Origin: a virus
Lineage: Duplodnaviria; Caudoviricetes
Reading direction: 5' to 3' (one strand)
DNA: 26,739 nt
IMG/VR virus record: IMGVR_UViG_3300005805_000397
Span: 1 to 26,739 of that record
A model generated the notes under the pieces. It was not told the origin of the DNA. It did no database searches and was given only the letters and a program-made list of their open reading frames with translations. The translations under genes were made by a program, and so were the position numbers. Position 1 is the first letter of the stretch, and each line of letters opens with the position of its first letter. Positions 1 through 21,794 of the stretch are shown piece after piece.

Positions 1-1089
1 AACCTTTGCATTACCAGTCTTTACACCAGTAAGAGCAAATGTGGCAACTCCGTTTGTAATTGATGCAGATGTAGCAGAATTGCTTACAACCGCAAGAGTA
101 TCGGATGTTGCATAAAGTGTTCCTGAATTAACAACAACATTATTTGCATCATATGCTACGGCTGTCAAAGCTTCAGCATTTGATCCAACTGCAAGGACTG
201 GCTTCTTTACTGTTGTAACAATCTTAGCAATATCTCCATAAAATGTTACAGACTCTGTTGCAAGAACAACGTTTGAAGCGGTTGTAATTGTTACAGTACC
301 TACTCCAGAAGTTCCATCAGAAAATACACCAATATAGTGTCCTGCTGGAACTACCATTGCACGAACAGATCCAGAAATTGTTGCATGGTTTGATCCATGT
401 CCAAGAAGTCCTGGTCCAGAAATAGTCACAGTAAGTGACTCAGAAGCACTACCACCAGCAGCGTTCTTTTGTGTTACAACAATAATACCTGCTGCATCAG
501 AAGCTACTACCTTAGAGGCAGAAACTGCTGAATCAGATGTAGCAGAAATTGTTTCTCCAGCATTAAGAATTGATGTGGATGTTGCTGCAGAAGCTTTTTC
601 ATCTTTTGCATTAACAGTAACTGTCCACACTAATGGTGAAGCAGTAACCTTTCCACCAGCACTCTTAAGAACTGGATAAAGATTAATAACATATGTGCCT
701 GCAGCAGATGGTGCTACAAGTGCGACATTAAGTTTAGCAGTTACCTGTGCTGCAGAGTTAGTTGTTGAACTAACATCAGCAGATGTATTTCCCCCACCAA
801 GTGTTACAACTGCATTGCTAGTTTCTGAAACCGAAAGAGTAGCAGACTTACCAGCGCCAGTTGGCTGACTTGAGACAAGGGAGAGAACAGAAACTGTATC
901 ACCAGAGTTTTCTGCAATAAATGTCAAAGTAACAACTGCTGTTGCTGTATCACCTGCGGTAATTGTATCCGCTACGGCATCAATAGCAAAACTATCAGCA
1001 AGAACTGCTGCCTTTGATGGAATTGCAGAAAATGTGCTAAATGCCAAGGCTGCAGCCAAGGTCATTGCAATTTTCTTAAATGAATTCAT
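1..1089 (-). CDS. Secreted Ala/Ser/Thr/Val-rich beta-strand protein, Ig-like/S-layer-like (3' end runs off the window; absent from the ORF track)
   Basis: Manual translation from ATG at 1089: MNSFKKIAMTLAAALAFSTFSAIPSKA|AVLADSFAIDAVADTITAGDTATAVVTLTF..., open to position 1. RBS AAGGAG at 1094-1099. Sec-type signal peptide (KK, hydrophobic stretch, S-K-A cleavage). Ig-like strand patterns such as AGTYVINL, VWTVTV, GVGTVTITT, NGVATFAL. Confidence 0.8.
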   Translation of the reverse strand, partial: MNSFKKIAMTLAAALAFSTFSAIPSKAAVLADSFAIDAVADTITAGDTATAVVTLTFIAENSGDTVSVLSLVSSQPTGAGKSATLSVSETSNAVVTLGGGNTSADVSSTTNSAAQVTAKLNVALVAPSAAGTYVINLYPVLKSAGGKVTASPLVWTVTVNAKDEKASAATSTSILNAGETISATSDSAVSASKVVASDAAGIIVVTQKNAAGGSASESLTVTISGPGLLGHGSNHATISGSVRAMVVPAGHYIGVFSDGTSGVGTVTITTASNVVLATESVTFYGDIAKIVTTVKKPVLAVGSNAEALTAVAYDANNVVVNSGTLYATSDTLAVVSNSATSASITNGVATFALTGVKTGNAKV

Positions 1090-15041: not shown

Positions 15042-15617
15042 TTAAGACTTATTTTCATTTGATAGCCACTCTTCTTCGGTTATATTATTTCTAATTACAT
15101 CAAGATATGATGGCCCTTTAGTAAAAAACCAATGATCTGGTTCTACAAAATGAAAAAAAATCATTTGAACATAATTAGTTTCTGGCTCTGGAAATTTTTC
15201 TCTCCAGTGAAGCTGATCGTTGCCATAGTATGCTAAAGCTTGATTTGGCTTTAATGTATATGGAATACCTTCAACATATATATCCCACGGGTATTTTTGA
15301 AAAATACATAAATCAATTGTATATGTACAAGCATTATCATCTTTGTGTTTAATTAAATTTGCATTAACACCCTCGTAATGAGAAAAAAGTGTATAACTTG
15401 GTAATAAATATTCATTATTAAATATTTTTCTAGCTAAAGGAGTTATTAAATATGCATAATTTTGAAGTTCTGGAAGCACGGCATTTGAAACAACCCACCT
15501 AGAAAGATCTTCTTGATAATGTCCAGACTTAGGATCTGGAAATAATGACTTTATATTATTGAAATCATTGTCATTAAATACAGAGTCTAAAACGACTGGA
15601 TCTTTTATATCATGCAT
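15042..15617 (-). CDS. 2OG-Fe(II) oxygenase-family protein
   Basis: HxD (LIKHKDD), distal His/Arg (QLHWRE), YVQMIFFHF: the double-stranded beta-helix pattern of phage prolyl-hydroxylase-like enzymes. Start taken at ATG 15617. Confidence 0.8.
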   Translation of the reverse strand: MHDIKDPVVLDSVFNDNDFNNIKSLFPDPKSGHYQEDLSRWVVSNAVLPELQNYAYLITPLARKIFNNEYLLPSYTLFSHYEGVNANLIKHKDDNACTYTIDLCIFQKYPWDIYVEGIPYTLKPNQALAYYGNDQLHWREKFPEPETNYVQMIFFHFVEPDHWFFTKGPSYLDVIRNNITEEEWLSNENKS

Positions 15618-15810
15618 TGTGTTGGCTTTGATCTGATATTTTAGCAAGAACACTTTCTGAATATTGTTCTATAGCAGCTTCTTTTTCATTTTTTTCATTA
15701 ATTAATTGTGTAATTTCTGCACGAATAATTGCAATTTGTGTTTCATAATTTGAAACCAATTCACCAATTCTTTGCTGCAATGCTGCAACTATTAATTCTG
15801 TTTTCTGCAT
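15610..15810 (-). CDS. Small coiled-coil protein
   Basis: Heptad pattern LQQRIGELVSNYETQIAIIRAEITQL. Confidence 0.65.
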   Translation of the reverse strand: MQKTELIVAALQQRIGELVSNYETQIAIIRAEITQLINEKNEKEAAIEQYSESVLAKISDQSQHNA

Positions 15811-16035: not shown

Positions 16036-16344
16036 TTAATTAATTCGTCTTCCATTATCATCAACAACATCTGGGATTGATGATGGGTTTGTTTCTATTG
16101 GCCCCCATTTTCCTATAGGACATGATGCATGTGGAAGCCTTGCTTTTTCAGTCATAAAACATCCACATTTCTTGCAAGTTTTAGTTAATTGAATTAATGA
16201 TGGACATTTTAGACATCCCTCTTTATATCTATAATTAAAAATATCATCATCTACACGACCAATTTTTGGATTTATTAAATCCCAAGGTCTAACAGTGTCC
16301 CCTGCATTTTTTTCTTTCCATAACTGCCAATTGCTTTTAGACAT
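16036..16344 (-). CDS. Cys-rich small protein (CxxC...CxxCGC...CPxGKW; DUF6171-like)
   Basis: CLKCPSLIQLTKTCKKCGCFMTEKARLPHASCPIGKW. Start at ATG 16344 behind GAGGAG. Confidence 0.72.
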   Translation of the reverse strand: MSKSNWQLWKEKNAGDTVRPWDLINPKIGRVDDDIFNYRYKEGCLKCPSLIQLTKTCKKCGCFMTEKARLPHASCPIGKWGPIETNPSSIPDVVDDNGRRIN

Positions 16345-16345
16345 T

Positions 16346-16618
16346 TTACTCCTCAATAGGGGTATCTTGTTGATCTGGCTCTAAACTTTCTATAAAAAAT
16401 TGTTGTGTTTCATAGTCCCACTTAGTACCTATTTTAATAATTCCACCGTCTTGAACTAATTGTCCAGTTACATCTATAATTAATGGGCTGCTAGTAAATA
16501 TTGCAGATAATCTTTCATCAGTATGTAATATATCAACAACCTCTCCATCTAAAACAAATGCTATTTTTATAGGCGGAAGCTGTTGTTCTTGAACATTATT
16601 ATTTATTTCTTCTGACAT
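16346..16618 (-). CDS. Small acidic beta protein, possible tail-fibre/adhesin assembly factor
   Basis: IAFVLDGEVVDI...IGTKWDYETQQF resembles small proteins encoded next to phage fibre genes; AAGGAG RBS at 16624-16629. Confidence 0.6.
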   Translation of the reverse strand: MSEEINNNVQEQQLPPIKIAFVLDGEVVDILHTDERLSAIFTSSPLIIDVTGQLVQDGGIIKIGTKWDYETQQFFIESLEPDQQDTPIEE

Positions 16619-16676: not shown

Positions 16677-18935
16677 TCAAACTATACTTAAATTATCATA
16701 TAAAGTTCCAACATTATTTGGTGTATGAGCCTTAATGATTCCTGATGATGTTTCATCATTAGCACTTGATTTTGTAGGAGAAGAAAATGTTTTTGTTAAG
16801 GTAGAACCTATTTGTGATCCTCCACTATCATATGCCTTTGCAGTTACGATATTGCCACTTGTTTCAGATACTATTTTATATATTCCTGTAAAATTAGAGG
16901 TATCAAATGATTCTCCAGCTGGCCTAGTATTATTTATAATTAACCCAGTAGCATTTCCAGAATTGTCCCAGTTATTAGAAGACACAACCCCAGAAATAGC
17001 TGACCAAACTTTCATTTTGGTATTATATGTATACTGGGTTGCGGTTGTATCTTCATTTTTTGGATATGTAAAATTATATTGAGCAACATATTTTGGATAT
17101 GTAAAATTATATGTTGTAACTGATACATTTTTTGGATATGTAAAGCTATATGTAGTAACTGATGCCCTACTAGGATATGTAAAATTATATGTTGTTGTTA
17201 CTAATGTTTGTCTAACTGAATAAGAATATACTGTTGCTGTAGTTCTAACCGTGTATGTGAATGTTCTACATCTACATTGCCAAAAACCAGTTGAACAGTT
17301 ATATTGAGCATTACTAGTTGTTCCATTTGGGCATGATGGACAAACTGGTGTAAGGCTGGTAGATCTGCATAATCCAAAAGTATCAACTGTTGTACATGCA
17401 GAACATCTATCTCCTGCAAGAGGTCCTGTATCTGGACAGGTAGCGCTACTCACAGTTCCACCAGAACATGGGTATGTTGTACTTGGGGTACATACTGAAC
17501 AACGATCTCCATTACCAGATCCCTCGCTTGGACAAGTAGATTGATTAGATACGCTGCCAGTACATGGATATGTTGTACTACTACTTTGACTTACATAAGT
17601 ACAAGATCCACACCTGTCTCCAATATTTGATCCTATTGGGTTTGCGGTTTCACAAGGACCAGTAGCGGTGCCGCTTGTATTTGAATAACTACCAGTTCCA
17701 GTACACTGTATTGATGTTGATGAGCCAGTATATGTACAAGATCCGCATCTTGTTCCATCTGTTGTTCCACTAGGGTTAGCACTTTCACAAGCACTGGTAG
17801 ATGATCCACTTGTATTTGAATAGGTCCCAGTTCCAGAACATGATACTGACGTTGATGATCCAGTATATGTACAAGATCCACACCTATTTCCAACAATAGG
17901 AATACTATCTGTTGGGTTAGCGCTTTCGCAAGCACTGGTAGATGATCCACTGTTGTTTGAATATGTTCCTGTTCCAGTACATACTGCTGTTTGATTTACA
18001 TATGTACATGCACCACATCTTGTTCCAGATGTTGTTCCTGTTGGATTAGCATCATTGCATGGAGTTGTTGATGTTCCAGTACTATTTGAGTAAGATCCCG
18101 TTGCAGTACATGTTACTACATTTACAGTTGATGAATCATAATCAAAATATGAAGTAACCGCATACCAAGAATTAGCAGATGTTACCCAAAAAGCTACTCC
18201 CTGTCCGCCTTTTCCATCTGGAATGTCTATTGAATATGTTTTATTAACTTTAGACGAATTACTACTGCCAACTTCAATTGTTTGTAAAGGATGGTTTGAG
18301 GCTGATGCTCCAGAGGTGACTGATGCACTATTTACTGCTCTTGATCCATTTACAGACCATCCAGACGTTAAATTTGCATATGAACTATATATATATGAGC
18401 TTGAAGATGTTCCAAGACCTACAGAAACTGTTCTATTAAAGTTATCTGTTATATTTCCAACATATGCTTGAACATACATAGAAGAATAAAAATAATATGT
18501 TTTTGTTCCACTTTGATTTTTTACTGAATCTTCTGTATAGTATTTATATACTGGAGTTGTTGCATCTTCTTGAGTTACGGTATAAGAATTTGTAAGATCT
18601 GTTCCATATTTGGTTTCTGAACCGTTTATTGGATTTAAATCAATACTCATTTTAACTAATTTTTTAACAATTCCATATGATGTATTAATATTCGTATATG
18701 TTCCAGATGATCCAACCCCTACAGATGTAAAAGCTTCTCCAGAGCCACTTGGTGATGTGGGAGATGATGTTTGTGTTACGGCTGCTTCTGTTGAAGAAAA
18801 TACTTTTTTCCATTCTCCATTAGATTTGAGCCTATATATTCTACTTAAAGATCTCCATGCACCAGTATTTTTTAGTCTATATATTTTTGAAAGCTTTCGC
18901 CATTCTCCAGAACTTTTTAATCTGTAAATCGGCAT
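16677..18935 (-). CDS. Putative tail adhesin/receptor-binding protein: triple N-terminal repeat, and a lectin-like beta-sandwich interrupted by a nested Cys-rich insert
   Basis: Last gene of the tail module. N-terminal (IYRLKxxGxW)x3. ConA/LamG-like elements ITDNFNR...GWSVNG...GQGVAFWV...WYAV before the insert and KMKVW...VTAKAYD...SSGII...YDNLSI after it. 30 Cys in residues 276-556. Confidence 0.75.
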   Translation of the reverse strand: MPIYRLKSSGEWRKLSKIYRLKNTGAWRSLSRIYRLKSNGEWKKVFSSTEAAVTQTSSPTSPSGSGEAFTSVGVGSSGTYTNINTSYGIVKKLVKMSIDLNPINGSETKYGTDLTNSYTVTQEDATTPVYKYYTEDSVKNQSGTKTYYFYSSMYVQAYVGNITDNFNRTVSVGLGTSSSSYIYSSYANLTSGWSVNGSRAVNSASVTSGASASNHPLQTIEVGSSNSSKVNKTYSIDIPDGKGGQGVAFWVTSANSWYAVTSYFDYDSSTVNVVTCTATGSYSNSTGTSTTPCNDANPTGTTSGTRCGACTYVNQTAVCTGTGTYSNNSGSSTSACESANPTDSIPIVGNRCGSCTYTGSSTSVSCSGTGTYSNTSGSSTSACESANPSGTTDGTRCGSCTYTGSSTSIQCTGTGSYSNTSGTATGPCETANPIGSNIGDRCGSCTYVSQSSSTTYPCTGSVSNQSTCPSEGSGNGDRCSVCTPSTTYPCSGGTVSSATCPDTGPLAGDRCSACTTVDTFGLCRSTSLTPVCPSCPNGTTSNAQYNCSTGFWQCRCRTFTYTVRTTATVYSYSVRQTLVTTTYNFTYPSRASVTTYSFTYPKNVSVTTYNFTYPKYVAQYNFTYPKNEDTTATQYTYNTKMKVWSAISGVVSSNNWDNSGNATGLIINNTRPAGESFDTSNFTGIYKIVSETSGNIVTAKAYDSGGSQIGSTLTKTFSSPTKSSANDETSSGIIKAHTPNNVGTLYDNLSIV
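17025..17267 (-). repeat. Return-strand repeats: FTYTVR, YSYSVR, then 4 x Y(N/S)FTYP
   Basis: Plus-strand GGATATGTAAA(A/G)(T/C)TATAT copies start at 17062, 17095, 17134 and 17173 (spacing 33, 39, 39 bp). Confidence 0.9.
17370..18110 (-). repeat. Six tandem 4-Cys modules: 4 type A (C-x16-C-x13/15-CGxC; 43, 47, 45, 47 aa) and 2 type B (C-x9-C-x10-CSxC; 32, 33 aa)
   Basis: First Cys codons at 18110, 17981, 17840, 17705, 17564 and 17468. Exact DNA repeats CAAGCACTGGTAGATGATCCACT (17788-17810, 17929-17951) and CCAGTATATGTACAAGATCC (17725-17744, 17860-17879). Confidence 0.92.
18798..18929 (-). repeat. Three tandem 15-aa repeats IYRLKxxGxW(R/K) at the adhesin N-terminus
   Basis: IYRLKSSGEWRKLSK / IYRLKNTGAWRSLSR / IYRLKSNGEWKKVF. 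Confidence 0.9.
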
Positions 18936-21314: not shown

Positions 21315-21794
21315 CTATCTTGGACCAATAGCAATAAAGTTTACAATTATTGGCGCAGTCGCTGCTGAACCATCTGGCTTATATGCTCTAACAGTAAATC
21401 CAGTTGTTGTAACATTATGAGTTGATACAACAATATCAAGCTGTCCACCGATAGTTCCATCTGTATTATCATGAGAAACTATTACTCGTGGAATCTGTGA
21501 AAATGTAACTCCAGTTTCAAATGGAAATGTATTACGATAATATGGATTTCCATTGCTATCACCAACATGATCTGTCTCGCTTGGATCTAATTTAACTTTA
21601 CCAAACACAATATTACTTGTTGCTAAATCAAAATCAGACTGAAGATCATCTGCAAGCCAGTCTGGTATATAATCAGCACCAAACCTATTAACTAAAACAT
21701 TTAAATAATCACTATGGTCATTTATAACATCAATTATTTTTTGGATGCTTGCCATATCAATTATCTCTGGATTGTCTATTTTTACATAAGCCAT
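21315..21794 (-). CDS. Minor tail protein with an H-type-lectin-like C-terminal domain
   Basis: F...FSQIPRVIVS...VSTHNVTTTGFTVR...VNFIAIG pattern; short helical N-terminus; AGGAG RBS. Confidence 0.72.
   Translation of the reverse strand: MAYVKIDNPEIIDMASIQKIIDVINDHSDYLNVLVNRFGADYIPDWLADDLQSDFDLATSNIVFGKVKLDPSETDHVGDSNGNPYYRNTFPFETGVTFSQIPRVIVSHDNTDGTIGGQLDIVVSTHNVTTTGFTVRAYKPDGSAATAPIIVNFIAIGPR

Follow-up and report, generated by a model that had tools for sequence, protein, structure and literature searches.

A predicted out-and-back arm of nested modules in a putative host-recognition protein of an uncultured freshwater phage

The stretch of DNA analyzed here, hereafter the window, is IMG/VR virus record IMGVR_UViG_3300005805_000397, positions 1 to 26,739. 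This 26,739-nucleotide (nt) window looks like a fragment of a phage genome: it carries terminase, replication and tail genes, and all of them lie on the minus strand. In this report, we examine its arm gene, the product of which (the arm protein) contains a cysteine-rich insertion in a domain predicted to resemble concanavalin A (ConA). Modules on the way out along this insertion are matched in mirror order by strands on the way back, and the pattern recurs in homologs. From sequence comparison and structure modeling, we consider it very probable that the insertion forms a nested arm, in which each module is completed by a strand supplied on the return.

The layout of the gene is given in Table 1. 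An earlier note on this DNA, made from its sequence, had described four long (A) and two short (B) modules, a knob, and then two plus four return strands, and every listed element is present in that order. The A-to-A linkers of 8, 10 and 10 amino acids (aa) and the return periods, read from the outside in, of 11, 13 and 13 aa were likewise as described. The arm protein has 30 cysteines, all within residues 276-556. The shift between the two arms, taken to be uniform, is so within one module type but not across types: the distances from hinge Cys to next Cys (12, 14, 14, 16, 11) face return spacings of 11, 13, 13, 13 and 11, with the offset set by module type. A match of six modules with six strands could arise by chance at a single locus, but the homolog comparisons below exclude chance. 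Contigs from four lake-water runs overlap across the insert and show no differing letters, insertions, deletions or joints in 17026-18395; the four runs belong to one study, and the source sample is possibly among them. As far as can be told, the insert is not an assembly artefact. Of the segments that precede it, the aromatic/basic repeats likely serve virion attachment or oligomerization, and the spacer domain, probably a beta-sandwich, is preceded by extra domains in some homologs. Inspection of the sequence revealed no signal-peptide-like hydrophobic stretch at the N-terminus.

Table 1. Features of the arm gene and of neighboring genes in the window (all on the minus strand; residue numbers refer to the arm protein).
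Feature	Position	Strand	Basis
Arm gene, 752 aa, last large tail-region gene; unnamed family	16677..18935	-	Open reading frame (ORF) list
Three N-terminal Y-x-x-K-x-x-G-x-W aromatic/basic repeats	18792..18935	-	Sequence; conserved Trp columns in homolog alignment A1
Conserved spacer domain (~110 aa) preceding the lectin-like domain	18459..18788	-	Invariant columns in alignment A1
N-terminal half of predicted ConA-like beta-sandwich, residues 160-266	18138..18458	-	Model confidence (pLDDT) mostly 94-98; structural alignment
Module A1, 4 Cys, residues 276-310; predicted partner strand a1	18006..18110	-	Sequence; Y282 and Y312 contact F622 in prediction
Module A2, 4 Cys, residues 319-355; predicted partner strand a2	17871..17981	-	Sequence; Y325 and Y357 contact F611 in prediction
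Module A3, 4 Cys, residues 366-400; predicted partner strand a3	17736..17840	-	Sequence; Y372 and Y402 contact F598 in prediction
Module A4, 4 Cys, residues 411-445; predicted partner strand a4	17601..17705	-	Sequence; Y417 and Y447 contact F585 in prediction
Short module B1, 4 Cys, residues 458-482	17490..17564	-	Sequence; within predicted interface
Short module B2, 4 Cys, residues 490-514	17394..17468	-	Sequence; within predicted interface
Apex knob, 34 aa, 6 Cys, residues 523-556	17268..17369	-	Sequence
Return strands b2, b1, (F/Y)xYxVR, starts 559 and 570	17211..17261	-	Sequence; strands in model
Return strands a4, a3, a2, a1, Y(N/S)FTYP, starts 583, 596, 609 and 620	17061..17189	-	Sequence; single continuous beta-strand in model
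C-terminal half of predicted ConA-like beta-sandwich, residues 635-752	16680..17033	-	Model; structural alignment
Partner gene, 90 aa, conserved, without Cys	16346..16618	-	37/41 related loci
Partner gene, 106 aa, six invariant Cys, DUF6171-like	16036..16356	-	37/41 related loci
H-type lectin domain gene in tail region	21315-21794	-	H_lectin match

A first search for homologs of the arm protein returned 29, and a search with a profile 56. When viral contigs were scanned, the profile recovered 41 loci and the single protein none. Representatives numbered 674 at E<=0.001 and 162 at E<=1e-10, and the best 150 were retrieved. In all, 225 proteins were collected, of which 182 have both halves of the flanking domain; 166 are complete, and 99 remain after de-replication at 50%, with inserts of 65 to 521 aa. 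By the number at E<=1e-10, the family is large in environmental phages, and it has no name. The same scaffold also carries other insert chemistries (P0122, P0147, P0154, P0161, P0202 and L025-L039), namely short CxCxxC or CNPY-type repeats, evenly spaced lone-Cys ladders and YSCPSGG-type repeats.

The lengths of the segments on the two arms vary together. The mirror-matched proteins furnished 14 representatives; after four without length variation were dropped, 10 proteins and 55 linker pairs remained. Outbound linker and return spacing correlate with r=0.90 when paired in mirror order and with r=-0.21 when paired in parallel order, and none of 20,000 within-protein permutations reached the former value. 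In P0002, for example, outbound spacings of 12, 14, 12, 14 and 11 face return spacings of 11, 13, 11, 11 and 11; in P0031, 13, 11, 15, 9, 15, 9, 15 and 11 face 15, 11, 15, 9, 15, 9, 15 and 11. A second, independent set comprises 31 of the 182 proteins, in which one end of the insert, whether outbound or return, has two or more 3-Cys modules and the opposite end has lone cysteines. In all 59 of the 59 pairs from this set, the spacing between lone cysteines is the same as the module linker or longer by 1 (r=0.97), compared with a mean of 31% and a maximum of 54% in shuffles. The mirror-spacing pattern recurs across differing module chemistries.

The numbers of modules and strands were also compared. 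Cysteines were grouped by hand in 43 parseable proteins, one of which had no anchor and was dropped, and return strands were located by a profile trained on five of the 43. An exact mirror of modules and strands emerged in 27 of the 42 semi-automatic parses, with 4 facing 4, 5 facing 5, 6 facing 6, 7 facing 7, 8 facing 8 or 9 facing 9. Although the modules run outward in the window's protein, as the earlier note had it, they are not confined to the outbound arm in the family. In the P0007 group (seven proteins), the outbound arm consists of four modules plus a bare strand, and the return arm of one module plus four strands. A module has thus switched arms there, and its strand with it, the bare strand standing opposite the returned module. 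In P0019 and P0020, the order of modules and strands read by eye is MMMMSMSMM outbound and SSMSMSSSS returning, a full interleaved complement, of which the automatic parse recovered the inner part alone. The insert of P0021 has two modules and two strands outbound and two modules and two strands returning; its outer module has seven Cys and the mirror strand of that module one.

AlphaFold2, given residues 160-752 and a 46-row alignment, produced a model with a mean predicted local distance difference test score (pLDDT) of 87.4, a predicted template-modeling score (pTM) of 0.54 and no low-confidence segment. In this model, the return arm is one unbroken strand (protein residues 578-647, model residues 419-488) with no turns between return repeats, and each A module contains a short helix. 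We aligned the model (numbered 1..593) with VIA-align against 48,161 chains. Among the 50 matches shown, ConA-like sandwiches aligned over 155-187 residues that span both flanks, the aligned rows extending over model residues 1..593. The best was the receptor-binding domain of TM4 gp23 (9n6a; Z 14.5, root-mean-square deviation (rmsd) 3.1, 176 residues aligned), followed by the carbohydrate-binding module (CBM) CBM66 (4b1m; Z 14.2, rmsd 2.8, 155 aligned), a Douge baseplate chain (8zdo; Z 12.7) and the CBM2 of the J-1 evolved Dit protein (5ly8; Z 11.4); GH43 C-terminal domains also matched. The flanks, previously proposed to form a lectin-like beta-sandwich, are thus predicted to be the two halves of a single ConA-like domain.

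The shared fold shows no function by itself. The BppU carbohydrate-binding module of Douge binds mycobacterial glycans (PMC13033339), and the arm gene lies among tail genes. Upstream genes match phrog_11445 and phrog_10359 (minor tail) and H_lectin in Pfam and PHROG searches, and in several related loci the arm gene keeps its place relative to the minor tail and H_lectin genes, which puts it in the tail module. The genes upstream of the arm gene vary among related loci. The terminase is 53-54% identical to terminases of Streptomyces phages, and lake-water sequencing runs of one study contain the arm gene; for these two reasons, the source would be an uncultured freshwater actinophage, and the host is probably an actinobacterium. 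From fold and gene position, we infer that the arm protein is a virion-borne adhesin that binds a receptor, and a role in host recognition seems likely.

The likeness to the ConA-like and carbohydrate-binding receptor-binding domains of actinophages (TM4 gp23, Douge BppU-CBM and J-1 Dit CBM2) thus lies in the fold of the split domain and in the place of the gene. It ends there: the matches are confined to the flanking domain, and the 368-aa insert is left uncovered in every listed row. For Douge, the word "disulfide" is absent from the main text of PMC13033339.

The knob type of the window's protein occurs in 20 of the 225 collected proteins, on very different scaffolds. In P0014, P0021 and P0031 the knob is 82-91% identical to the window's, whereas their flanking-domain halves are 24-44% identical to the window's. 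Conversely, P0015 and P0019 share an N-terminal half that is 100% identical but inserts that are 37% identical, and P0019 and P0025, 98%/93% identical, have different knobs. At the DNA level, the stretch from B2 through the knob is 71% identical to loci L001 and L002, with the remainder of the gene unmatched. We read these patterns as exchange of inner cassettes between scaffolds, the alternative being strong purifying selection on the knob. A comparison with the ultralong CDR-H3 (third heavy-chain complementarity-determining region) of bovine antibodies had been drawn; it holds for shape but not for variability, as the knob behaves like an exchangeable allele, not a hypervariable loop. It is also conceivable, though rather unlikely, that the arm is real and yet does not determine specificity, serving instead as a spacer, a decoy or a capsid or tail decoration (for particle adhesion, shielding or slower sedimentation) while host binding falls to the lectin-like domain alone. 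The existence of inserts of just 65 aa, a knob conserved on distant scaffolds that could be a structural cap, and ConA-like phage domains that bind glycans with no arm (PMC13033339, in part) would all fit such a role. The differing arms and knobs on near-identical scaffolds do not; such divergence is what one would expect if diversifying pressure acted on a host-interaction module.

The cysteines offer a further view of how the arm may be held together. Of 166 complete proteins, 164 have an even number of cysteines, as do 97 of the 99 de-replicated ones, whereas five control residues have even counts in 47-58 of the 99. Cysteine counts are multiples of four in 86 of the 166 proteins and not in 78, which points to pairs rather than tetrads. 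Zinc could nevertheless be bound within the same nested arm, by two Cys plus a CxxC in each module or by 3+1 Cys across the arms, as in the zinc finger of DnaJ. All six modules have four Cys including a CxxC, the 3+1 variants also total four, and phage proteins fold in a reducing cytoplasm. We regard zinc as improbable, given the 78 proteins with counts of 2 modulo 4, the whole subfamilies with 2-Cys modules, others with 6-Cys modules and adjacent CC, and the rarity of histidine (82 His to 3,700 Cys family-wide). For these reasons disulfides are favored, and we think it probable on the sequence evidence that the arm cysteines form them.

The pairing of the arms was addressed by a two-chain prediction, in which residues 267-522 (outbound) and 557-636 (return) were supplied separately, with three controls. 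The pair scored 0.65 and the best control 0.00; of solved complexes, 116 of 157 attain the score mark, as do 2 of 215 mismatched pairs, a calibration that is only roughly valid with our own alignment. Runs shared at least 99% of contacts, and partners had pLDDT of at least 90, whereas in controls lacking the true partner the return chain fell to 29 and the outbound chain to 41-46. The contacts of lowest error place strands a1-a4 on modules A1-A4 (Table 1), with the Phe of every return strand lying between two Tyr of the mirror module, one at its entry and one at its exit. The B modules lie within the predicted interface, and no B pair is among the 25 contacts listed. Two parts of one chain can pass such a test through likeness to solved structures; no such likeness was found among solved structures, the arm alone not having been used as a query. 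The prediction that return strand i pairs with outbound module i in reverse order agrees with the models, which support the pairing rather than demonstrate it. Along with covariation, lone-Cys compensation and cysteine parity, they favor the view that each module is completed by a returning strand and that the domains are nested. The two-chain test is blind to whether pairing occurs within or between chains. Tail proteins are frequently trimers, so a return strand might complete the modules of a neighboring subunit under the same mirror rules. Such inter-chain pairing strikes us as quite improbable, as both arms are rooted in one split domain, with the turn between them at the knob, and the single-chain model is confident throughout. 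That the modules are independent beads, with return repeats forming a sheet or solenoid of their own and the mirror a coincidence, is scarcely credible despite the parses lacking an exact mirror, in view of the length covariation, the even Cys counts, the lone-Cys spacings, the deletion in P0006 (below), the lack of turns in the modeled return arm and the low pLDDT of either chain without its true partner.

Several observations nonetheless weigh against a nested, mirror-paired arm. An exact mirror was missed in 15 of the 42 parses, and of the 27 matches, five are training sequences and two (P0028 and P0065) are off-register. Thirteen of the misses have strands that are divergent or misregistered, another has a surplus strand at the apex, and the last (P0006) is a true mismatch of 6 and 8; the attribution of most misses to divergent, sub-threshold strands is a reading by eye. 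Total token counts of the two arms correlate weakly (rho 0.36). The simple count rule for lone cysteines fits 16 of 31 proteins because of overcounting at the inner edge, and spacings alone were therefore used. As many homologs are related, the pairs are not independent and the numbers above are inflated. AlphaFold2 run on the single sequence of residues 160-752 gives a pLDDT of 34, and both structure predictions rest on one alignment of our own, A2. The lectin-like domain is 6-12% identical to its structural matches, and the family has no detectable homolog in any cultured phage. Finally, the arm protein has no export signal, which leaves the route of disulfide formation unexplained. We rejected P0006 as a counterexample. 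Its cluster sister P0233 is identical to it at 719 of 723 residues and carries a tandem unit that P0006 lacks through one 64-aa deletion; P0233 has eight modules, in the order predicted from the return arm. The deletion could be a collapsed repeat in assembly or a fresh event, both being possible. Outbound and return counts in homologs hence match exactly in a majority of parses but not in all, this deletion being the sole true mismatch.

Our proposed explanation is as follows. A ConA-like beta-sandwich would be interrupted by six Cys modules, a knob and six mirror-ordered strands, yielding a long out-and-back arm that is likely stapled by disulfides. The return strand, spanning at most ~26 nm, would be clasped by the entry and exit strands of each mirror module, such that each small domain is encoded in two places and nested within the preceding one. 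The length and tip of the arm likely change when recombination exchanges or duplicates inner cassettes of the nest, with selection balancing the arms. By holding the knob at a distance from the tail, the arm would let it reach or sample the surface of the host, probably an actinobacterium. Taken whole, this account of a host-recognition protein with a nested, disulfide-stapled arm and cassette recombination seems to us fairly probable. A bolder version is tentative and rather doubtful: that the protein represents a widespread class of receptor probes in phages, as yet undescribed, with a telescoping split-repeat arm stapled by disulfides, in which exchange of nested cassettes resets length, module polarity and tip, the knob sets host specificity and two small genes are a dedicated maturation system.

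The claim that this is not a described phage receptor-binding architecture has held up: our literature searches, whose scope excluded supplementary files and most subscription journals, found no description of the arm family. The arm protein has no match in Pfam, PHROGs or NCBIfam, the family profile none among Protein Data Bank (PDB) sequences; these blanks are compatible with remote homology. Nor did tblastn find a match in annotated phages. Foldseek on the PDB, with the arm not searched separately, had no match at E<=0.001; the highest-ranked rows were long-hairpin pore proteins (TM 0.03-0.09), which we took as chance. A BFVD search returned six uncharacterized proteins of uncultured phages and nothing else, and for the domain the ESM Atlas gave clusters without names and structure rows that were weak, with no usable match for the arm. 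We would class the protein as a ConA-like phage tail domain carrying a hitherto undescribed nested arm.

Stalks that run out and back, and repeated domains built from discontinuous sequence, are already known elsewhere. In the antigen I/II stalk (SpaP, BspA), as presented in part of PMC7732690, a single chain likewise runs out and back, and two dissimilar paired repeat regions raise a variable tip domain off a base. Those regions are alanine-rich and proline-rich and belong to a cell-wall-anchored bacterial protein (PMC7732690, same part), whereas the phage arm has beta-structure in the model, modules rich in Cys, Thr and Ser, several mirror-ordered module types, modules on either arm and no LPXTG anchor; the likeness would be one of working principle, not of membership. 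The Si3 insertion of cyanobacterial RNA polymerase is also an elongated series of repeated small beta-domains, four of its eight being formed by distant segments as the chain folds over itself (PMC10895346, in part). Unlike the arm, it is an insertion in a cytoplasmic enzyme, built of sandwich-barrel hybrid motifs (SBHM), and neither a knob nor cysteine staples are described in the available portion of PMC10895346; no SBHM row is among the 50 matches shown for our whole model, in which the arm was not searched separately. Tentaclins (PMC10743442) also have a lectin-fold domain of phage origin, linked to immunoglobulin (Ig)-like domains and bearing a hairpin that varies at its surface, but that domain is N-terminal and of the C-type, the hairpin short and the variation due to retroelement hypermutation. 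The lectin-like domain of the arm protein is C-terminal and, by the model, ConA-like, and no reverse-transcriptase-like gene of the kind that accompanies diversity-generating retroelement (DGR) targets was recognized in the window.

The bovine ultralong CDR-H3, as far as the material available describes it, also presents a disulfide-rich knob on a two-stranded stalk off a beta-sandwich. It has ~50-70 residues and is unsegmented, compared with phage inserts of up to ~520, and it combines an immunoglobulin V scaffold with a somatically diversified knob, whereas the phage knob is conserved and exchanged on a ConA-like scaffold. The receptor-binding needle of T4 gp37 is an out-and-back chain at a phage fiber tip; it is trimeric and holds iron by histidines, a residue that is rare in the arm family.

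Usual repeat proteins are tandem, with one unit per stretch; in the arm family, two distant stretches each encode part of the unit, copy number ranges from ~2 to 10 and the module half of the unit can switch arms. Because of that split, each change in length needs two matched edits. For protein evolution the family thus poses a problem open to testing, and it is naturally suited as a scaffold to present a small disulfide knob at a chosen distance. If the knob does set host specificity, its sequence would be a marker linking uncultured freshwater phages to their hosts. A putative virion protein with 30 cysteines, accompanied by conserved partner genes, is also relevant to how phages produce disulfide-rich proteins in the cytoplasm.

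Both partner genes occur together in 36 of the 41 related loci; the five exceptions end at or right after the arm gene. The 90-aa protein, which has no useful match in the PDB, PHROG or NCBIfam, is possibly an assembly chaperone. DUF6171 is matched at E<=0.1 by 15 of 15 members of the 106-aa group (best 5.2e-08), although the window's copy scores below the curated cut-off; a role as a folding or oxidation helper for the arm is our guess. Locus L041 (3083-7489) has tandem paralogous arm genes, each with its own 90-aa partner, and a single CxxC partner.

Elsewhere in the window, the gene at 1-1089 (minus strand), which runs off the window end, encodes an N-terminus that resembles a signal peptide and weakly matches a bacterial Ig-like family (Big_1, E 0.006); it resembles a host-type exported surface protein carried on a phage and is a possible host indicator. 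A 203-aa gene (15042-15653, minus strand), in a low-GC stretch just past the partner genes, matches phrog_2954, labeled ferrochelatase. Its motifs resemble those of a 2-oxoglutarate/Fe oxygenase, and it is not at the equivalent position in the 41 related loci.

Weak relatives of the 106-aa CxxC partner occur in cyanophages and Stenotrophomonas phages. The idea that this partner always lies beside a Cys-rich protein was dropped: it is true in two of the three cultured phages inspected, but not in Yut3. In two cyanophages the neighbors have 23 and 9 Cys. In Synechococcus phage S-CRES3 (L044, 4200-5240), an unannotated 346-aa, 23-Cys protein is encoded beside a DUF6171-like gene and two ConA-like genes.

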